17,603 nt of DNA from a virus. Taxonomy: Duplodnaviria > Heunggongvirae > Uroviricota > Caudoviricetes. Positions within the stretch are counted from its first letter, which is position 1. The number at the start of each line of letters is the position of its first letter. Below, piece after piece: positions 1-15,810 of this stretch. A model generated the notes under the pieces. The model had not been told where the DNA came from. It saw nothing but the letters and a program-made list of their open reading frames with translations, and did not search any database. The DNA lies in the IMG/VR virus record IMGVR_UViG_2711768068_000022. One strand, written 5' to 3'. A program made the position numbers and the translations under genes.

Positions 1-1461
1 ATGAAAAAATTACTGCGTCTTTTTTTCCCGCTCTCACTGCGGGTACGTTTTCTGTTGGCAACGGCTGCGGTAGTACTGGTGCTTTCGCTTGCCTACGGAA
101 TGGTCGCGCTGATCGGTTATAGCGTCAGTTTCGATAAAACTACGTTTCGGCTGTTACGTGGCGAGAGCAATCTGTTCTATACCCTTGCGAAGTGGGAAAA
201 CAATAAGTTGCATGTCGAGTTACCCGAAAATATCGACAAGCAAAGCCCCACCATGACGCTAATTTATGATGAGAACGGGCAGCTTTTATGGGCGCAACGT
301 GACGTGCCCTGGCTGATGAAGATGATCCAGCCTGACTGGCTGAAATCGAATGGTTTTCATGAAATTGAAGCGGATGTTAACGATACCAGCCTCTTGCTGA
401 GTGGAGATCATTCGATACAGCAACAGTTGCAGGAAGTGCGGGAAGATGATGACGACGCGGAGATGACCCACTCGGTGGCAGTAAACGTCTACCCGGCAAC
501 ATCGCGGATGCCAAAATTAACCTTTGTGGTGGTGGATACCATTCCGGTGGAGCTAAAAAGTTCCTATATGGTCTGGAGCTGGTTTATCTATGTGCTCTCA
601 GCCAATCTGCTGTTAGTGATCCCGCTGCTGTGGGTCGCCGCCTGGTGGAGTTTACGCCCCATCGAAGCCCTGGCAAAAGAAGTCCGCGAACTGGAAGAAC
701 ATAACCGCGAATTGCTCAATCCAGCCACAACGCGAGAACTGACCAGTCTGGTACGAAACCTGAACCGATTGTTAAAAAGTGAACGCGAACGTTACGACAA
801 ATACCGTACGACGCTCACCGACCTGACCCATAGTCTGAAAACGCCACTGGCGGTGCTGCAAAGTACGCTGCGTTCTCTGCGTAGTGAAAAGATGAGCGTC
901 AGTGATGCTGAGCCGGTAATGCTGGAGCAAATCAGCCGCATTTCACAGCAAATTGGCTACTACCTGCATCGTGCCAGTATGCGCGGCGGGACATTGCTCA
1001 GCCGCGAGCTGCATCCGGTCGCCCCACTGCTGGACAATCTCACCTCAGCGCTGAACAAAGTGTATCAACGCAAAGGGGTCAATATCTCTCTCGATATTTC
1101 GCCAGAGATCAGCTTTGTCGGTGAGCAGAACGATTTTGTCGAGGTGATGGGCAACGTGCTGGATAATGCCTGTAAATATTGCCTCGAGTTTGTCGAAATT
1201 TCTGCAAGGCAAACCGACGAGCATCTCTATATTGTGGTCGAGGATGATGGCCCCGGTATTCCATTAAGCAAGCGAGAGGTCATTTTCGACCGTGGTCAAC
1301 GGGTTGATACTTTACGCCCTGGGCAAGGTGTAGGGCTGGCGGTAGCCCGCGAAATCACCGAGCAATATGAGGGTAAAATCGTCGCCGGAGAGAGCATGCT
1401 GGGCGGTGCGCGGATGGAGGTGATTTTTGGTCGCCAGCATTCTGCGCCGAAAGATGAATAA
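1..1461 (+). CDS. phoQ: Sensor histidine kinase PhoQ (PhoP/PhoQ two-component system)
   Basis: 486-aa ORF with ATG start; two N-terminal hydrophobic segments flanking a periplasmic domain, HAMP region, H-box ([11 protein letters not shown]) and HATPase motifs ([15 protein letters not shown]); length and sequence match E. coli PhoQ as recalled. Confidence 0.96.
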
Positions 1462-2422: not shown

Positions 2423-4084
2423 TTACACCCCGCTAAATTCTTCCAGTTTCTGGCGGTGGCTGTCGCTTATATCAAAAGCAAAATCCTCATGCTCTGCCTG
2501 GAATGTACCAAACGCCATCAGCGCCGCCACGCTCGGGTCTATCTTGTTCGGTGATTTTTTCTTGTTCGGCTTGATATTGGCGTTCGCGTCACTCTGCATC
2601 ACGACGTTACTCATCGACCAGGACAACACCGGATCGCCACGATGCACAATCACCCTGCGGTTAACAAAAACTTCGAACGATTTCGCCGCCGGACTGAATC
2701 TGAGGTAGGTTTGCGGGAACGGCTCCACCTCAAAGCCTGCCCCCTGTAATTGCGTCCTGAGATGCGTGGCGTTCCACGTATCAAAGCCCACCAGCCTGAT
2801 ATTAAATTTCTCCGCATCCTGCATGATGTCATCTCTGATCCGGTCGTAATCAATGCAGTCACCTGGCGTTGTGCGTATCCAGCCCGCTTTAGCCCACTGG
2901 CGATAGACAGCGCGGTTTTTATTGGCGGGGTTCTGTAGCTGGAACTCCGGCAGATAATGACGGGAAACCAGCATGATATTTTTACCGACCGGAAAGGCAT
3001 AGCACACGCTGGAAATATCGCTGGTTGATGATAAGTCCAGCCCCGCGTAACACTCCTGCCCGTGTAAATCTTCCTCCGTGAACGTTCCGGCACACTCAGC
3101 CCATGCGCCGTTACCCATCCACGGGGTAGCCCCCTGGCACCAGATATTAAATCGCTTTGTCATCATCTCCACCCATTGCGACGGAATACCCCGCGCTTTC
3201 TGGATGGTTGAGGCCAGTTTTTCACGATCCACGGAAACATCGATGTTAGGGTTAGCCTTTATCCACATCGCCGGATCATCAACCTCGTTTTCGTCGTCCA
3301 GTTCGTAAATCAGTACAAAAATTGAATCGTTGACCTCTTCGCCGTCCAGGATCTGGCAGCAATAATCATAGTGCTGCTTACAGGCTGAAACGACGTTACT
3401 GCCCGATGTGGTAATGGCAAATAACAGCCCTTCGGGACGTGCGCCCATCCCCAGCTCAAGCGCGGAATAAACGCCGTTATCGGGGTGTAGGTGGTATTCG
3501 TCCACGATGGAAAGGCTTGGGTTTGTGCCCTCGATGGTTGCCGCTTTTGCTGCCAGCGGCTTTAACAGGCTGTTGCTTTTCGGGTGCATCACCTTGTGGG
3601 CCTGAATATTCACCCGCCTGCGTAACGGTCGGGATAAAAGGCACATCTGACGCGCATCATCAAAAACGATCCGCGCCTGGTCACGGCTCACCGCTGCGGT
3701 GTAAATATCCTGCTGCCCGTTCTCCATAATCAGAAACCAGTTAGCCAGAATCGCGGCGGTCGTGGATTTCGCATTTTTGCGCGGCACTTCGATAAAGGCG
3801 CTCGTGTATTTGCGCCGTCCGGTGGCCTTAACCTTAAAGCCGAGGATGCACGCAAAGGCGAACTGCTGCCACGGCTCCAGCTCAATGGGTCTGCCACGCA
3901 TCGGCCCTTTTACGTGCGGGCACACCCTGGAAAAGGCAATAAACCGCTCCACAACCTCACGATCGAACGTGTAAAGGGGGCTTTCAAGGTCCGAAAAGTA
4001 CCGTTTAACGGCCTGTTTCAGCCGTTTACAGGCCGGAATTTTGCCCGTTTTTACGTCTTCTGCGTACTTATTCCAGGCGGTCAA
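2423..4084 (-). CDS. Terminase large subunit (TerL)
   Basis: 553-aa ORF; N-terminal WNKYAEDV...GK motif typical of terminase ATPase domains, C-terminal nuclease-like region; apparent TTG start at 4082-4084 preceded by GAGGA, overlapping the TerS 3' end by 17 nt. Confidence 0.9.
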   Translation of the reverse strand: MTAWNKYAEDVKTGKIPACKRLKQAVKRYFSDLESPLYTFDREVVERFIAFSRVCPHVKGPMRGRPIELEPWQQFAFACILGFKVKATGRRKYTSAFIEVPRKNAKSTTAAILANWFLIMENGQQDIYTAAVSRDQARIVFDDARQMCLLSRPLRRRVNIQAHKVMHPKSNSLLKPLAAKAATIEGTNPSLSIVDEYHLHPDNGVYSALELGMGARPEGLLFAITTSGSNVVSACKQHYDYCCQILDGEEVNDSIFVLIYELDDENEVDDPAMWIKANPNIDVSVDREKLASTIQKARGIPSQWVEMMTKRFNIWCQGATPWMGNGAWAECAGTFTEEDLHGQECYAGLDLSSTSDISSVCYAFPVGKNIMLVSRHYLPEFQLQNPANKNRAVYRQWAKAGWIRTTPGDCIDYDRIRDDIMQDAEKFNIRLVGFDTWNATHLRTQLQGAGFEVEPFPQTYLRFSPAAKSFEVFVNRRVIVHRGDPVLSWSMSNVVMQSDANANIKPNKKKSPNKIDPSVAALMAFGTFQAEHEDFAFDISDSHRQKLEEFSGV

Positions 4085-4424
4085 GCTCGTCCTCTTCTTC
4101 TGTTTCCGGTGGATTTTTACGGCGGCTTATCGGGTCAAAACCGAGCAAAGAGGCCATTTTTATCATCACTCTTTCAGCGTCGGATTTTGCGCTTAATGCG
4201 GGGTTTCTGCTCTCACCGCCCTGACTGTTAACAATGCTGAACCCGCGCGCCGCAAGGTCTGCAACGGCTTTCCGGTAAATGGAGTAGTTGACACAATACA
4301 GTTCCAGATTGCTCCAGTCGGCGGGGGTCAGGTCTCCCCGTTCCGCAAGCTGCCTAGATTTTTCCCGCCACTGCTTCACGGCGATATCATCCAGGTAGGC
4401 GGGGGCTTTCGGTGGTCTTGACAT
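4068..4424 (-). CDS. Terminase small subunit (P27-family-like)
   Basis: 118-aa ORF immediately upstream of and overlapping TerL; size and W..L/C.NY/NPA pattern recall P27-family TerS; no strong SD seen upstream. Confidence 0.7.
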   Translation of the reverse strand: MSRPPKAPAYLDDIAVKQWREKSRQLAERGDLTPADWSNLELYCVNYSIYRKAVADLAARGFSIVNSQGGESRNPALSAKSDAERVMIKMASLLGFDPISRRKNPPETEEEDELDRLE

Positions 4425-4714
4425 GCTTATTTTTTCGCCAGATTATTTTTCAAAAAATTCCCGTGCATAAAAATTTGAGGAGGCGTTCGGTGCCCGGCGG
4501 GGTCGGGTTTGTCCTGAAAACGCCCCCCCACCCCGTCATACAGCCTCATCAGCGATTGCGGAAACATTCCATAACCTCGCGGTCACGGTCGGTTAATCGC
4601 TTCGCTGTGATGCGTTCTGCGCGTCCTGACGCTTTATCTTTATGCCCTGTTTCCTGTGTCTTCCATGCGTCACGCTGCCTTATAAGTCCACGGATAAGGC
4701 GGTTTTGTTCCCGC

Positions 4715-5155
4715 TCATTCATCAGCGTCATACATCCAGTTATTGCGGTTAGCGGCCCGTTCTTCCTCTTCACGAAATCCACCTGCGGCACGCTTGCTTT
4801 TTGTTGCCGGATCAAGCCATTTCGTTTTCTGGTTATGACACGCCTGGCACAATGGTTGATGGTTCCATTCGGGCCAGAAGAGAACATCATCACCGCCATT
4901 AATCGGGATAATGTGATCCACCACCACGGCGGGCGTATATATCCCCTTCTCAAGGCATCGCACGCATAACGGGTTTTTACTCAGATACATGGCGCGGTAT
5001 TTGTCCCACTGTCTGGAATATCCACGCGCGCGGCGGTGTCCTCGTCTGGCATCCTCTGCACGCCATGCCGCCCGCCTGTGCTCCTCACACTTGCCGGATT
5101 TAACGCGCCTGTTACAGCCTGGTTCTGTGCATCGTCTTAATGGTTGCCACGGCAT
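4715..5155 (-). CDS. HNH endonuclease (packaging-associated)
   Basis: 146-aa ORF with Cys pairs and VDHIIP...NHQPLCQACHNQK HNH motif; sits immediately upstream of terS as in HK97-like cos phages; GGGGG SD; start overlaps the upstream gene stop by 1 nt. Confidence 0.85.
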   Translation of the reverse strand: MPWQPLRRCTEPGCNRRVKSGKCEEHRRAAWRAEDARRGHRRARGYSRQWDKYRAMYLSKNPLCVRCLEKGIYTPAVVVDHIIPINGGDDVLFWPEWNHQPLCQACHNQKTKWLDPATKSKRAAGGFREEEERAANRNNWMYDADE

Positions 5156-9056: not shown

Positions 9057-9281
9057 TCAGTCCCTGATCCCTTTCAGAAATTCTATCAATGCATCTGTCT
9101 GTTCAGGATTTACCGCCAGCATTTCACCGGATAGCGCGCAACGAACAAAACCATGATGATCCTTTTCAATCAGCGCCCCCGTTTCCAGGAATGCGCGGTA
9201 ATCAGTGATGTTCATCGTCTCCATGTTGTCAGCATGGTATTTATCACGCTGTTTTAATATCTCATCAAATTTCGTCGGCAT
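9057..9281 (-). CDS. Hypothetical protein (74 aa), insulated single-gene cassette
   Basis: Start placed at the internal ATG 9279-9281 with AGAGGAA SD (the track ORF extends to 9359 but would leave no room after the upstream terminator); flanked by two identical terminator hairpins. Confidence 0.55.
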   Translation of the reverse strand: MPTKFDEILKQRDKYHADNMETMNITDYRAFLETGALIEKDHHGFVRCALSGEMLAVNPEQTDALIEFLKGIRD

Positions 9282-9375
9282 TGTTTTTTCCTCTGTTGTG
9301 TCTGTTTGTTTCAGATAGTAACTATGCCGGACCGTGACGAAAAGCCAGTAGTGCGCCATACCATTTCAAATGACG

Positions 9376-10101: not shown

Positions 10102-10416
10102 TCAGTGAAGCGATCCGGCGTTGTTCTTTTTCATCTTTTTCATCTCTTCCATCATTTTTTCAGTGAGCATTACGCACTGAAAACCCATTTTTTTGATGTC
10201 TACGGGTTTCATGCCTTTGTCAGTGGATATCACAGGCAGAATATCCTGATACACATCGCGGTCAGGGTAACTAAGCACACAAAGCGCCCATGATGCCACG
10301 GGTGAGGATCCTTCGTCTGTTTCAACCCACCAGCCTGGTGTAGCTGCGCTTATTTGCAGAATCGTGATCCGTCCGTTGTGCTTGTAAAATTTTTCACCAA
10401 ATTTTGGTTCGCTCAT
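10102..10416 (-). CDS. Hypothetical protein (104 aa)
   Basis: ORF with GAGAGGTGG SD and ATGA overlap with the upstream gene; no motif recognised. Confidence 0.55.
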   Translation of the reverse strand: MSEPKFGEKFYKHNGRITILQISAATPGWWVETDEGSSPVASWALCVLSYPDRDVYQDILPVISTDKGMKPVDIKKMGFQCVMLTEKMMEEMKKMKKNNAGSLH

Positions 10417-10664
10417 GATTCCACCTCTCCGGTTTTAACGTTGATGGTTGTTACCTGTTCCGCTTCGGCAATCTCCCGTTCTGTCAGCGTGGCAAAGTTT
10501 GCCGCCGCTGTGGTCATGAATGCGCTTATCAGTTCGGGATGTGCTTTCGCGTATCCTTCCCCCGCGTGGCGGTCTATCGTTCTGATTGCCACCTTTAAGG
10601 CGTGCTCTGTCATGTCTAACGCTTTATATTTTGGCTCTGTTCTGTCTCTGTGTTTTTGAGTCAT
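10413..10664 (-). CDS. Hypothetical protein (83 aa)
   Basis: Start placed at the internal ATG 10662-10664 with GAGGTGG SD; the longer track ORF (to 10796) would translate through the iteron array. Confidence 0.5.
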   Translation of the reverse strand: MTQKHRDRTEPKYKALDMTEHALKVAIRTIDRHAGEGYAKAHPELISAFMTTAAANFATLTEREIAEAEQVTTINVKTGEVES

Positions 10665-10665
10665 T

Positions 10666-10875
10666 TGCCCACCTCTACCCACTTTTTTCGCCCACTTTTT
10701 ACGTTTTCCCACTTCGTCCAACGTGGGAAATTTGGGATTTATATCATCTTGTTTCATAGGTATTTTTTTAGTGCCCACTTTTTGGGATATATGCACGTGG
10801 GAAAGTGGGTAATTTTGTTAAAATTCCGTTAAATCGCCCACCTTTCCCACTTTTAATGCCCACTTTTTACAGTGG
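10666..10875. repeat. Iteron array with central AT-rich segment: putative replication origin
   Basis: About 8 direct copies of CCCAC(T/C)TTT plus inverted copies (ACGTGGGAAA, GTGGGAAAGTGGG) around an AT-rich stretch (about 10735-10770); lies at and just past the 3' end of the replication ATPase gene. Confidence 0.7.
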
Positions 10876-12264
10876 TCCTACATCATCACCGTCAATGTAG
10901 ATCACGTCGTCTTTTTCCAGTTTGGCTAACCATCGTTTAAGGTGTTTTGTGTCATACCCCAGCTTTTTCATATCGTCACGTAACAGCGGGATCGTGCACT
11001 TGTCGCCGTGCTGTGTGCGTGAACGTATGCATCCCCATAGCGCGGTATGGTTTTCCGTCTTGTTGCCTGCCTCCTCGATGCGCTCCAGTTCAACGGGAGG
11101 GCGCGGCTTATCCACCACCACCAGCGACGTGATTAACTCCCCGTCAGCGTCGGTAAAAAGCTCCACCACGCGTAAGTCATATGCGGCTTCTTTGAGTTCC
11201 TCCGCGTCCTTCATTTTGGTGCATGAGATAACCAGCGCTTCGCTTCCTGCGTCCTCCCTGCGTATCCGGTATTCAGCATCCAGCGAAGCACGAAATGCAC
11301 TAGAACCGCGCGCGCCTTTCGTCTCATCCTTGCCGGAATGGTGAACCACCAGCACCGTGGCCCCTGTGCGTCGTTTCAGTTCGTCACAACCACGGATAAA
11401 CGCCCCCATATCACGGGAATCATTTTCATCATTACCACCAAAGCAACGCGCCAGCGTATCCAGAATAATCATGCGAACAGGTTTACCCGTTTCCCTCTCC
11501 ACCTGACGGGCAGCGATAACCATTTCATCAACATCAAGCGGGACCGCCGGAAAGATGGGACGGTTTACCAGATACAGATTTTTCACCTGCTCACCGTGCA
11601 CAACCTCCCAGGCTTTTACACGACGCGGAACGCCGATACCGCCTTCACCAACCACATAGAGAACAGCGCCATGCGCCACCCTGCGGCCTCCCCACTGACG
11701 GCCCGTGGAAACGTGACACGCCCACGAACCCGCAAGGAATGATTTATAGGAACCGCTTGCCCCGTATATGCTGCATAGCGACGATGCCGGAATAATCCCC
11801 TTTACCACGTAATCTAATTGCGTGTCGTATCCGGCAGATCCAACGCTCATCGGTAGCGTGGTTTTTCGCTGGTGGTGTTCTTCCCCTGGCTTTTTCCCCC
11901 GCTCCCGTTCCAGATATTCGCGCCAGTTCTCCCGCTTCTGGCTGTGTATCCCTTCGGGGTAATAATTCGCATCAGTTACGCCCGCCGCCGCCAGCTTGTG
12001 CGCAATGGCATTAATATTTGATGGCCTGATGTGGCCTGCCTTGTACAGCCGGACACAATAGCGCCCCTCGTCGATGATTCTCAGGTCTGCCAGTTCATCC
12101 AGTTGATCATCAGCCAGCACAATGGGAGGCACATTATCGCCAGCCAGTCGCCCGTCCTGTTCCTGCCACTGTTTCGCATGTGCCCACGCATCACTACCCG
12201 CAAAAATGATGACTTCGGTCATCTTGTCGTAAGGCTGTTTTTTTAAGTTCGGTGCGCTTTTCAT
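10867..12264 (-). CDS. Replication protein, RecA-fold ATPase (RepA/DnaB-like helicase/primase-associated)
   Basis: 465-aa ORF; deviant Walker A (YGASGSYKS), Walker B-like MIILDT, and VLVVHHSGKD motif typical of RepA/AAA_25-type replication ATPases; ATGA overlap with the upstream ORF. Confidence 0.78.
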   Translation of the reverse strand: MKSAPNLKKQPYDKMTEVIIFAGSDAWAHAKQWQEQDGRLAGDNVPPIVLADDQLDELADLRIIDEGRYCVRLYKAGHIRPSNINAIAHKLAAAGVTDANYYPEGIHSQKRENWREYLERERGKKPGEEHHQRKTTLPMSVGSAGYDTQLDYVVKGIIPASSLCSIYGASGSYKSFLAGSWACHVSTGRQWGGRRVAHGAVLYVVGEGGIGVPRRVKAWEVVHGEQVKNLYLVNRPIFPAVPLDVDEMVIAARQVERETGKPVRMIILDTLARCFGGNDENDSRDMGAFIRGCDELKRRTGATVLVVHHSGKDETKGARGSSAFRASLDAEYRIRREDAGSEALVISCTKMKDAEELKEAAYDLRVVELFTDADGELITSLVVVDKPRPPVELERIEEAGNKTENHTALWGCIRSRTQHGDKCTIPLLRDDMKKLGYDTKHLKRWLAKLEKDDVIYIDGDDVGPL

Positions 12265-12560
12265 TTCTTGCCCCTGAATCCGTTAATCATGGTTTTCAGC
12301 TTCTGGATGTTTGCCCGTGCCCTGGCGTTGCTGGTGGGCACGTTATGCGGCGCGGTCTGTACCAGAGAAAAATCACGCCGGAACTGATAAACAGGCATCA
12401 CGCAATCATATTCGTAACCTTCACGGCGGTAAGTTACGCACCGTCCCGCCACGCCCTTAATCATTACCGTGCCGCCGTACTGGTCGCGGTAAATATCACC
12501 GCGCATAAATTTAGGGTGAGTGTTGCCACTGGCAGTTAAGCCAGAATATTTAAGTTTCAT
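12261..12560 (-). CDS. Hypothetical protein (99 aa)
   Basis: ORF with GGAGAA SD; translationally coupled to the replication ATPase gene. Confidence 0.55.
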   Translation of the reverse strand: MKLKYSGLTASGNTHPKFMRGDIYRDQYGGTVMIKGVAGRCVTYRREGYEYDCVMPVYQFRRDFSLVQTAPHNVPTSNARARANIQKLKTMINGFRGKK

Positions 12561-12565
12561 TATTT

Positions 12566-12799
12566 TTATTCTCCGGTGTGCTGTTCGTTATATCTGTCGT
12601 GCAATGTCTCTATTTCCTGCAACTCATTTATTACAGGCTCAAGAAGCGTTATTAATGATGTAATAATCCGCGTTTTTTTTGCATTACGTTCATTATCGCC
12701 AAAGGATTCAAGGCACATCCGCAATATTTCGTACATACCTTCAGCGTAAGCAAGGGCACTAAATGCGCGGTCTATTGTTTCAAGATAAATATCACGCAT
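12566..12799 (-). CDS. Hypothetical protein (77 aa)
   Basis: ORF with GAGGA SD; predicted helical; no motif recognised. Confidence 0.5.
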   Translation of the reverse strand: MRDIYLETIDRAFSALAYAEGMYEILRMCLESFGDNERNAKKTRIITSLITLLEPVINELQEIETLHDRYNEQHTGE

Positions 12800-13241
12800 G
12801 GCTTACATCCTCAGGAAATTTTCTTCTGTAACGCGCCTCTGCCACATATTCCGCATAATCGGCGGCGATATTCAGTACATCAAGTCCCGTTGATTTATAT
12901 TCTTTCGTGGAAAGTAAGAAAAAAGCCGCTCTAATAAGTTCTGGCATTGACGAAAGCGCATCAGCCGCATCATCAGGAACGCCGGAAAATTCTTGTTTCA
13001 GGGAATTAAAACGATCATCACGCATAACCCCCCCCCCATTTTCACAATCAGCAACAAGAATATTTTTAGCGTCATTCAGCGACCGCGTTGCGATGTATCG
13101 GATACATTCCAGGGCGAACGTTGTCCGGTCTTTCTGTTCTTCTCCCTGCGCAAGCTCTGCCGTGCATTCAATATCAATAAGCGCGTGCATCAGCGTAGTG
13201 AGCGCGGCGGCGGCTGCGTCCGGTGTGGTTTTATTGCACAT
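12792..13241 (-). CDS. Hypothetical protein (149 aa) containing a G10 homopolymer in-frame
   Basis: Start placed at ATG 13239-13241 with AGGAGG SD (the track gives a TTG start at 13271); the start overlaps the stop of the upstream small paralog. Confidence 0.55.
   Translation of the reverse strand: MCNKTTPDAAAAALTTLMHALIDIECTAELAQGEEQKDRTTFALECIRYIATRSLNDAKNILVADCENGGGVMRDDRFNSLKQEFSGVPDDAADALSSMPELIRAAFFLLSTKEYKSTGLDVLNIAADYAEYVAEARYRRKFPEDVSHA
13028..13037. repeat. Homopolymeric C10/G10 tract inside a coding sequence
   Basis: Ten consecutive C on the plus strand (G10 on the coding strand, encoding NGGGV). Confidence 0.9.
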
Positions 13242-13404
13242 GGCACACCTCCTGACGAATACGGGCGACAAAAATCAGATGTGCGTGCGGCAGCTGTGCA
13301 CGTGCTTCGCGCTCAGTGGCAGCGGTAACGGTGAATATTGCAATACTGTCTGTCAGGCACTGCATAAAGCGCCAGACAAAATAAGGGCGTGTGAATACAG
13401 CCAT
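13231..13404 (-). CDS. Small paralog A (57 aa) of a tandem ORF family; may alternatively be the C-terminus of a longer ORF starting at 13698
   Basis: ATG 13402-13404 with GGAG SD; product shares the motif F(V/L)WRF...TEREAR...ARIRQ with paralog B; the same frame stays open upstream to ATG 13696-13698. Confidence 0.4.
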   Translation of the reverse strand: MAVFTRPYFVWRFMQCLTDSIAIFTVTAATEREARAQLPHAHLIFVARIRQEVCHVQ

Positions 13405-14906: not shown

Positions 14907-15025
14907 GTACACAAAACCGAACTATGAAACGGATTATTCCGTTTCCGGGGCGTTTGTGTGTGTATAAAGAGTAAGCTATGCTCTTTTATAGCCATAATCG
15001 TTACCTCAATTAATGGTTTGGTTAG

Positions 15026-15067
15026 ACGCCCCGTATGTGTTCCCATCACTGCGGGGCGTTGTTTTTT
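15026..15067 (+). terminator. Rho-independent terminator of RHH module 1
   Basis: 8-bp perfect stem ACGCCCCG/CGGGGCGT (15026-15033 / 15052-15059) followed by TTGTTTTTTG. Confidence 0.55.
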
Positions 15068-15083
15068 GTGCTAGTTGTGTGTA

Positions 15084-15099
15084 ATGTGTATATACACAT
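15084..15099 (+). promoter_or_regulatory. 16-bp perfect palindrome ATGTGTATATACACAT overlapping a candidate -10; putative operator of RHH module 2
   Basis: Read directly; sits about 30 bp upstream of the RHH2 start; a second dyad TTGAC-GT-GTCAA follows at 15122-15133. Confidence 0.45.
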
Positions 15100-15126
15100 A
15101 AACACATTATATGGAGTGTAATTGAC

Positions 15127-15306
15127 GTGTCAACACACAAAAATGAAAGGCGTGGTAATCCTCCTTTCCAGTTCCGTTTAGATCCTGACTTACGGGAAAA
15201 GATGGAAAAAGCACAACAACAAGACGGTGATGACTCTTTAGCAGCTTGGATAAAACGAATAATCCGAAAAGAATTACAGCAACGCGGTATTGAACCCAAA
15301 GAATAA
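15127..15306 (+). CDS. Arc-like ribbon-helix-helix DNA-binding protein (59 aa, GTG start), module 2
   Basis: Not in the ORF track (GTG start, under 60 aa); GGAG 10 nt upstream; PPFQFRLDPDLREKMEKAQQQDGDDSLAAWIKRIIRKEL aligns with the P22 Arc strand-helix-helix pattern as recalled. Confidence 0.5.
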   Translation: MSTHKNERRGNPPFQFRLDPDLREKMEKAQQQDGDDSLAAWIKRIIRKELQQRGIEPKE

Positions 15307-15310
15307 AAAA

Positions 15311-15355
15311 CATCAGCGCCGTGGCGTGAGGAACTCCGGCGCATTGCTTTACAGG
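15311..15355 (+). repeat. Conserved 45-bp intergenic element, copy 2
   Basis: Same position (57-nt intergenic gap) and sequence as copy 1. Confidence 0.7.
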
Positions 15356-15363
15356 TACACACA

Positions 15364-15567
15364 ATGACCAATAAAGAATCAACCAATACACCATCGCAAA
15401 AAACGAACAGAGAGCACGAAAATATGGCGCTCGAGCATGAATCAGAAAGATTCGCTCCATGCGCTTTTGTCCTTGATGAGTTTCTAAAAAAATATTCACG
15501 TTCTGAACGGATGAAAATGGCAGCACAATACGGCCCCAACAAGCAAGGTAATTGCCCACCAGCCTGA
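15364..15567 (+). CDS. Hypothetical small protein (67 aa), module 2 second gene
   Basis: ATG 57 nt after the RHH2 stop; weak SD. Confidence 0.4.
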   Translation: MTNKESTNTPSQKTNREHENMALEHESERFAPCAFVLDEFLKKYSRSERMKMAAQYGPNKQGNCPPA

Positions 15568-15641
15568 TAGCGGCTATCATTCCCGTGCTTATGTTTGGGA
15601 TCACATACACATAAGGCGCAGCAGGTTAATTGTTCAGAAAG

Positions 15642-15669
15642 GCGGCTCCATATCGGGGCCGCTTTTTTT
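15642..15669 (+). terminator. Rho-independent terminator of RHH module 2
   Basis: Stem GCGGCTCC/GGGGCCGC (one G-U pair), 5-nt loop, then T7. Confidence 0.65.
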
Positions 15670-15810
15670 ATGCCTGAAAAACCCCAATTTTGTTGTTTTT
15701 CAGTTTCACCAGGGCGAACGAATCCCCGCCCACGTTCGGGCGCATATTCAATCTTCATGGTTATATCTCTGTATTAGTGGATGTGTGGCGACTGTGTGCC
15801 GCCAGTCTTT

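Follow-up and report, generated by a model that had tools for sequence, protein, structure and literature searches.

The 17,603-nt stretch of viral DNA that we analyzed (IMG/VR record IMGVR_UViG_2711768068_000022; hereafter, the window) carries a capsid-forming phage-inducible chromosomal island (cf-PICI), a satellite of Escherichia coli phages, adjoining the phoQ gene. Pfam searches of its open reading frames (ORFs) revealed, on the minus strand, the order capsid, protease, portal, connectors, HNH endonuclease, a gap, the small-terminase gene terS and the large-terminase gene terL. This is the order described for the cf-PICIs of Proteobacteria (bioRxiv 10.1101/2022.09.08.507074). Our subject is the gap. 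A first-pass annotation of the DNA had placed in it (4425-4714) a candidate cos site of the HK97 type and had taken the whole 290 bp as non-coding. The interval is indeed flanked by HNH and terS, both on the minus strand, but it is not wholly non-coding. A 57-aa ORF of family phrog_3173 (4722-4549) takes up most of it (more than half) and, because this ORF occupies the rest of the interval, the true intergenic region is only 4548-4425, or 124 nt. We consider it highly probable that the segment 4534-4442 of this region, read on the minus strand, is the cos site of the cf-PICI and a homologue of the HK97/SfV-type cos. Four kinds of direct observation bear on this assignment, namely the identities of the genes, the conservation of the non-coding DNA, its collinearity with mapped cos sites and the contig ends of a relative that was sequenced from particles. 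The coordinates of all features are collected in Table 1, and the minus strand is referred to as the coding strand.

We assessed conservation in about 160 close relatives gathered from IMG/VR and in 80 loci that were retrieved by TerS alignment from bacterial contigs representing one genome per species (Enterobacterales, Aeromonas, Pasteurellaceae and Orbales, with TerS 65-100% identical). Of the gathered loci, nearly all displayed one collinear architecture upstream of terS, and the loci of Pasteurellaceae and Orbales have the same architecture as the window. Mean pairwise identities were calculated for the 61 loci with a placeable terS start, all of which are from Enterobacterales or Aeromonas. 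Counted from the predicted nick, positions +1 to +38 had a mean pairwise identity of 0.85-0.88. The neutral proxies gave 0.56 (terS codon position 3) and 0.52 (spacer), the terS leader gave 0.52, and terS codon position 1 gave 0.86. The non-coding core is thus constrained as strongly as protein-coding first positions, given 0.85-0.88 for the former and 0.86 for the latter. A profile for nhmmer was built from 68 intergenic sequences. It matched the window once, at 4537-4426 with 79.7 bits, the runner-up reaching 4.9 bits.

Two landmarks of the first-pass annotation take on a different meaning in this light. The GC-rich segment that it had pointed out is real and of exceptional composition: the 20-mer cggtgcccggcggggtcggg at 4488-4507 is 18/20 GC, a level reached at only 3 places in the window (7 of the 17,584 20-mer start positions). 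It is, however, the least conserved part of the site, a spacer of fixed length with only 2 nt inside the predicted cohesive end. Within the E. coli clade 53% of the spacer columns are variable, and the alignments show no variation in its length. The C-rich run that had been noted beside it is also real (about 4520-4536 on the plus strand) and is the sole such run in the window. Because the genes lie on the minus strand, this run reads as a G-run, which is conserved and lies about 41 nt upstream of the predicted nick. In the island of Xenorhabdus hominickii (L208) the G-run upstream of terS is expanded to tandem GGGGTA units (GGTAGGGGTAGGGGTAGGGGTAGGGGTAT), hence the copy number of the G-run can vary in some islands.

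When the HNH-to-terS interval was compared with 50,697 phage records by DNA BLAST, only three records were returned, none with mapped ends, and profile searches were therefore used. The cf-PICI profile was run on both strands of circularized phage genomes. In each of five phages with HNH beside a P27-type or HK97 terminase, the single best profile match fell in the HNH-terS gap: EPP-1 (E=6.8e-5), ST64B (E=7e-4), HK97 (E=0.085, pooled search), AbIPP1 (E=0.44) and SfV (E=0.65). Two of these five matches are statistically significant on their own. When the whole genome of HK97 was searched, the best match spanned the cos junction in the same orientation (E=0.018). The joined ends of the HK97 record present the same layout as the island, with GGGCAGGGGGGGGGATCAAATC upstream, ATGACCGCCGCCAAA running up to the junction, GTTTGAATTTAACGCTAACCCGATTTTTTTAG directly after it, and the ATG farther downstream.

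The phage sites provided anchors for the ends. HK97 DNA has 10-nt 3' overhangs, and the boundary of its record is the mapped cos cleavage site, -1/+1 (PMC11331095, PMC9410871). The minimal TerS site of HK97 was placed at +15 to +29 by electrophoretic mobility-shift assay and cryo-electron microscopy, with a G and the adjacent A-tract being read by the protein (PMC11331095). For phage SfI, run-off sequencing of virion DNA against the prophage left a 10-nt gap, which is the cohesive end TGCCCGCCCC; the cos sites of SfI and SfV differ by a single base (PMC3636060). We projected these positions onto the window through the profile. The SfI decamer falls at 4489-4480, the boundary of the linear EPP-1 record between 4480 and 4479, the HK97 boundary between 4479 and 4478 (with a 1-nt indel ambiguity), and the start of the HK97 TerS site at 4465. 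The three anchors for the ends (HK97 ends, SfI decamer and EPP-1 record ends) agree within 1 nt and, because they project there, the cohesive end CGAACGCCTC is predicted at 4489-4480, which reads gaggcgttcg on the plus strand. Downstream of it, the segment from +1 to +14 aligns with GTTTGAATTTAACG of HK97 and CCCCAATTTTTATG of EPP-1, and the predicted TerS site is the positional counterpart of the HK97 sequence CTAACCCGATTTTTT at +15 to +29. We also considered the boundary of the deposited SfV record as an exact end. It falls short of the SfI cohesive end by 7 nt, on the upstream side, and was set aside as not experimentally precise.

Particle DNA of a related cf-PICI bears on the same question. 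vB_KppS-Ant (LR881103.1; hereafter Ant) was reported as a 16.5-kb 'induced prophage' of Klebsiella pneumoniae DSM 30104 from a phage preparation, with Nextera XT used for sequencing and SPAdes for assembly; no reordering is mentioned in the paper, which gives Ant as >99% identical to the DSM 30104 genome (PMC8006926). The same strain is the host of KpCIDSM30104, an island that has been studied in its own right, and cf-PICI particle DNA was reported to concatemerize through cohesive cos ends (bioRxiv 10.1101/2025.02.11.637232). In its genes Ant conforms to a cf-PICI (capsid, protease, portal, connectors, HNH, terS, terL, integrase and primase). The contig, which is linear, begins 22 nt ahead of terS and stops 37 nt past the small ORF. 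We compared the contig with the locus of K. pneumoniae ATCC 13883 (L165), which we take to be the DSM 30104 strain and hence to hold the integrated copy of Ant. The 4.9 kb of flanks contained 0 mismatches, and exactly 69 nt are absent from the contig. In window coordinates the right end of the contig corresponds to 4511 and the left end to 4441, and the two ends are at distances of 31 nt and 38 nt from the nick that homology predicts. Most simply, the DNA would have been packaged as a linear molecule ending at the site, and the terminal tens of bases would have been lost in tagmentation or assembly. Support from the contig extends to the location of cos, to within about 35 nt, and to the orientation anticipated in the first-pass annotation, in which terS would lie at the left of the packaged DNA and HNH at its right. 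The ends of the Ant record were not retained as exact termini, since the integrated copy has the 69 further nt between them. The paper assigned Ant to a novel genus as a filamentous ssDNA phage (PMC8006926), which is mistaken. Directly after terL, Ant has a 2.3-kb coding sequence annotated as 'tail length tape measure protein', which the island of the window is without.

The packaging machinery, to judge by its homologues, is HK97-type. The HNH protein is 39% identical to gp74 of HK97 (E=2e-19) and 37% identical to Orf53 of SfV, and the sole sequence match of TerL in the PDB is the HK97 TerL (6Z6D, E=6e-42). TerS is 36% identical to that of SfV (E=5e-21) and 65-88% identical among the cf-PICIs of many genera. 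The HK97-like cos that had been proposed between HNH and terS is thus supported by its collinearity with mapped cos sites, by the conservation of the core, by the HK97-type TerL and HNH, and by the virion-derived contig of the relative.

A number of observations weigh against this assignment or against its details. The profile matches in HK97, AbIPP1 and SfV are weak in score (E=0.018 to 0.65); they count by falling in the cos region, and that of HK97 by spanning the mapped junction. The position of the nick rests on homology and the anchors disagree by 1 nt; the predicted position is good to about +/-2 nt, the probable polarity of the overhang being taken from HK97 and from the logic of the SfI gap. 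The decamer of the window, CGAACGCCTC, departs from the C-rich consensus CGCCCGCCCC. TerS had no similarity to HK97 gp1 in BLASTP (E=2.5) and no sequence match in the PDB by phmmer, and because of this the transfer of the HK97 TerS-site model is positional only. The loss of 31 and 38 nt at the ends of Ant as an effect of tagmentation or assembly is an assumption, and the paper is silent on termini. Finally, a scan for contig ends by the block-B motif found no pile-up of ends at the site in metagenome contigs (52 loci) or in IMG/VR (at least 120 loci), the motif being internal to the matching contigs; most of these loci are integrated copies or circularly permuted assemblies, and the scan is therefore uninformative.

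Record ends elsewhere among the relatives were not interpretable as termini. This applies to the contig ends of two isolate drafts (L110 and L117) and to the 106.5-kb record of Klebsiella phage P12620-1 (PQ569648.1; L003/L004). The latter looks chimeric, with a cf-PICI segment at its right end. Its HNH homologue is at 105,920-106,364 and its terS about 15 kb upstream, at 90,644-90,958. The record breaks off in the small ORF, 10 nt short of the stop codon and a few tens of nt ahead of the predicted cos. The records of Pasteurella phages Pmp7 and Pmp8 from Pasteurella multocida (OR544138.1 and OR544139.1, of 10.7 and 15.3 kb) encode a TerS 66% identical to that of the window and are probably cf-PICIs that were deposited as phages. 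Their ends are not at terS.

Three other accounts of the locus were considered. One would have the cut within the GC-rich segment itself (4488-4507), giving island-specific GC-rich cohesive ends flanked by two conserved blocks for protein binding. In favor of this are the exceptional composition of the segment and its place about halfway from the G-run to the C-rich stretch downstream (4489-4479), and its strict length with free sequence would fit a cut placed by distance; the deposited boundary of SfV, 7 nt upstream of the SfI cohesive end, also falls in the equivalent of this spacer. Yet the projections of the SfI gap, of the HK97 ends and of the EPP-1 record ends fall at 4489-4478 in every case and not in the spacer, the spacer segment and the mapped decamer have only 2 nt in common, and the mechanism of the SfV cos is termed only 'postulated' in the SfI paper (PMC3636060). 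We find a cut in this segment improbable. We attach a still smaller probability to the proposal that the block mainly controls terS-terL, as an activator or integration host factor (IHF) site, a late promoter or an RNA leader, with the packaging signal elsewhere or packaging by the headful. What invites this proposal is the position of the block, directly upstream of terS and after a 124-nt break in an otherwise tightly packed operon, together with its richness in A/T-tracts. On the coding strand, however, neither a sigma-70-like promoter nor an intrinsic terminator was found, the gap has no Rfam match at E<=1, and the RNA fold of the 124 nt is no better than that of shuffled sequences (z=-0.68). 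Against it are also the homology of the block to mapped cos sites, the HK97-type TerL with its HNH partner, the cohesive-end concatemers reported for cf-PICI DNA and the defined ends of the Ant contig in the region of the block. The conserved block may nonetheless have a dual role in packaging and control. A hairpin or terminator in the 124-nt gap was discarded, as pairing of the G-run with the C-rich stretches downstream of it is only loose. The only promoter-like site in the gap is antisense and at chance frequency, and was likewise discarded.

The last account holds that the element is a decayed remnant and the site a non-functional relic in the genome of the window. Degenerate copies do exist, the copy in Shigella flexneri with its 98-nt deletion being one example. 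In the window, by contrast, every packaging and capsid ORF is intact and of full length, and the match to the cos profile (79.7 bits) extends along nearly the entire profile. Moreover, complete E. coli genomes with near-identical copies number in the hundreds. The 551-bp segment surrounding the site was matched in 500 of the 5,426 complete genomes, always in the chromosome, 334 of them at >=95% identity. A relic at this locus is accordingly very unlikely in our judgment. The Shigella copy is found in S. flexneri SFBU1023 (CP182556.1; L164, about 2470-2510). Its deletion lies between a pair of CCCCGCC direct repeats located in the spacer and in terS codons 7-8, and it takes out the predicted cohesive end, the TerS site and the start of terS (codons 1-7). 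This island is decayed and no longer packageable.

Based on the HK97/SfV-type cos as the favored assignment, we envision the following sequence of events. By homology, the island would be excised and replicated into concatemers. The island's own TerS, as a nonamer, would bind the site composed of a G and an A/T-tract at about 15-29 bp downstream of the cut (4465-4451). TerL, helped by the HNH protein of the island, would then nick the two strands 10 nt apart, between 4480 and 4479 on the coding strand and between 4490 and 4489 on the other, to leave 10-nt 3' overhangs (CGAACGCCTC). Packaging would run from the terS side and terminate at the next cos. The linear genome would begin about 55 nt before terS and finish just past the small ORF that follows HNH. 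The G-run and the fixed-length spacer probably position the nuclease or serve in termination, in the manner of cosQ, which is a purely conjectural step. For this island the exact nicks, the polarity of the overhangs, the binding of TerS and the parts played by the G-run and HNH are all predictions.

Comparison with known systems places the site more closely. The Shigella phages SfI/SfV, together with ST64B and the Edwardsiella phage EPP-1, have HNH, cos, terS and terL on one strand in the same order as the island; their TerS is of the P27 family. They are collinear with it through the G-run, an interval of about 41 nt, AC(T/C)GCCCGCC(C/T)C, (C)AATTTTTA, the CCCG/CACGG box and the A/T tract. 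These elements belong to complete phages, whereas the island is a tail-less satellite, and the island has a phrog_3173 gene between HNH and cos, in which the SfI/SfV-type phages differ. The decamers are also distinct (CGAACGCCTC in the window, TGCCCGCCCC in SfI/SfV). Immediately downstream of the predicted nick the island has CACGG-NN-ATTTTTTT-GAAAATA, compared to CCCGCG-AAAAATGAAATTTAA in the SfI/SfV-type phages. Because this segment differs, the TerS of the island appears to have a specificity distinct from that of the phages, which would fit the exclusive packaging reported for cf-PICIs.

HK97 shares with the island a homologous TerL, the 39%-identical HNH, a G-run about 42 nt upstream of the cut and, where the TerS site has been mapped, a 'C/G box + T7 tract'. 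Its cos has the 10-nt 3' overhang and the TerS site at +15 to +29, and cleavage there is stimulated by the gp74 HNH protein. The two differ in that the TerS of HK97 has no detectable sequence similarity to that of the island and that the DNA is only weakly similar (9.6 bits); the distance from the end to the start of terS is 50 nt in HK97 and about 55 nt in the island. Closest are EcCIEDL933 and KpCIDSM30104 of the Penades laboratory, with the same order of modules and a nearly identical intergenic core (as seen in the EDL933-like locus L002 and in L165/Ant). The allele differs, having 70% DNA identity to the EDL933-like clone from HNH to terS and 82% identity to Ant in TerS, and the chromosomal context next to phoQ is not that of either island. 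The cos of lambda (cosQ-cosN-cosB) resembles the site in logic only, with a nicking site, a downstream TerS-binding region beside terS and an upstream element that is possibly for termination. Lambda has 12-nt 5' overhangs, no HNH partner, an unrelated TerS (Nu1), and multiple R sites with IHF, and there is no sequence similarity. By function and by descent, as far as homology can tell, the site is an HK97/SfV-type cos, and its likeness to that of lambda is only general.

The small ORF within the interval merits separate mention. Its ATG is at 4722 and its stop codon at 4551-4549, so that it overlaps the HNH stop by 8 nt, and 14 nt separate its own stop from the G-run downstream. The phrog_3173 match covers the whole ORF (E=6e-37), the Ant record (LR881103.1) has the ORF as an annotated coding sequence, and the RefSeq features under the match in E. 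coli genomes include 'hypothetical protein'. Its reading frame survives a 21-nt indel between clades, and the C-terminus has a conserved basic motif, RDRE(V/L)(M/R)ECFRNR, with third-position changes. The variable columns number 24/19/15 at codon positions 3/2/1, a weak third-position excess, and because of this weak bias the ORF seems loosely constrained apart from its C-terminus. That the ORF is a real gene is indicated mainly by its match to a PHROG family, by the conservation of its frame and by its annotation. The gene is present in the cf-PICIs of Enterobacteriaceae and in those of the Proteus/Providencia type; the copies of Xenorhabdus and Photorhabdus seem to have other sequence in its place.

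The G-run is common to HK97, SfV, ST64B, EPP-1 and the cf-PICIs of several bacterial families, at an equivalent distance. It could be an essential element that has gone unrecognized, either cosQ-like or a docking site for TerL/HNH that sets the cut by distance. The phrog_3173 product, a small basic protein encoded against the G-run in many cf-PICIs, could be an accessory factor of cos for exclusive packaging. That the HK97-type cos has more parts than a nick site and a TerS site, in the form of the G-run element, the phrog_3173 factor or both, is a tentative idea that we rate as rather doubtful. A cos is what a specialist would expect at such a position; whatever roles the small protein and the combination of G-run and fixed-length spacer may have at the site would be somewhat novel points.

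Table 1. Features of the predicted cos site, in coding-strand order, and genes of the cf-PICI and its flank in the window. Identity is the mean pairwise identity among 61 loci.
Feature	Position	Strand	Evidence or remark
G-run GGGGTGGGGGGG	4523..4534	-	identity 0.79; ~41 nt upstream of predicted nick
TTTTCAGGAC-AAA box (ATCAAAAATGAC-AAA in other genera)	4508..4520	-	identity 0.73
GC-rich spacer, fixed length, free sequence	4493..4507	-	identity 0.52
Conserved CAC preceding the predicted cohesive end	4492-4490	-	CACC identity 0.86
Predicted 10-nt 3' cohesive end, C-rich decamer CGAACGCCTC	4480..4489	-	projected from mapped ends; identity 0.75
+1 to +14 segment CTCAAATTTTTATG, would-be left end of packaged DNA	4466..4479	-	identity 0.88
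Predicted TerS site CACGGGAATTTTTTG, G beside T/A-tract	4451..4465	-	identity 0.85; HK97 projection
Continuation of conserved block AAAAATAAT	4450-4442	-	identity 0.86
Variable terS leader and ribosome-binding region	4425..4441	-	identity 0.52
Small conserved gene, 57 aa, phrog_3173	4549..4722	-	ORF list; PHROG match
HNH endonuclease gene, HK97 gp74 homologue	4715..5155	-	Pfam HNH E=1.8e-8; phrog_144 E=8e-45
terS, P27 / Terminase_4 family	4068..4424	-	Pfam E=1.3e-23
terL, HK97-type large terminase	2423..4084	-	Pfam TerL_ATPase and TerL_nuclease domains
gp6-like connector	5451-5155	-	Pfam
Head completion protein	5828-5448	-	Pfam
Portal	6994-5783	-	Pfam
Prohead protease	7568-6996	-	Pfam
Major capsid	8765-7608	-	Pfam
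AAA_25 replicase-like (RepA/primase-helicase-like) protein	10867-12264	-	Pfam
DUF4222 protein	12261-12560	-	Pfam
Ash-domain protein, 452 aa	13691-15049	-	Pfam
Tyrosine integrase	17603-16374	-	Pfam
phoQ, complete 486-aa sensor kinase	1-1461	+	flanks island

The span of the island begins at about 2.1 kb and continues past 17.6 kb. The window stops exactly at the start codon of the integrase, and attL is out of its reach. For comparison, the relative Ant measures 16,548 + 69 nt, and cf-PICIs form a size class of about 10-18 kb with att sites as their bounds. Tail or lysis domains were absent from the ORFs scanned with Pfam. ORFs without a Pfam match lie on the regulatory and replication side (15006-15758, 12792-13271, 10413-10796 and 9057-9359), and a further one of 93 aa (2128-2409) lies between terL and the phoQ side.

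The cf-PICIs are a recently described and widespread family of satellites, and exclusive self-packaging is central to their spread between species. As a class they are defined by induction through a helper phage and by packaging in small capsids of their own, with nothing but the tails taken from the helper. In the literature open to search, packaging at cos is stated for cf-PICIs and the site is not mapped. The window provides a predicted map at the level of nucleotides, with the cohesive end at 4489-4480, the TerS site at about 4465-4451 and the G-run at 4534-4523. Such a map would be useful for the transduction of cos plasmids, the mapping of termini, studies of TerS-DNA binding and the engineering of DNA delivery based on cf-PICIs. 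A single cos architecture is common to HK97, the SfV-like phages and the cf-PICIs from Enterobacterales to Pasteurellaceae, which would help the annotation of these elements and the prediction of those that may be cross-packaged.

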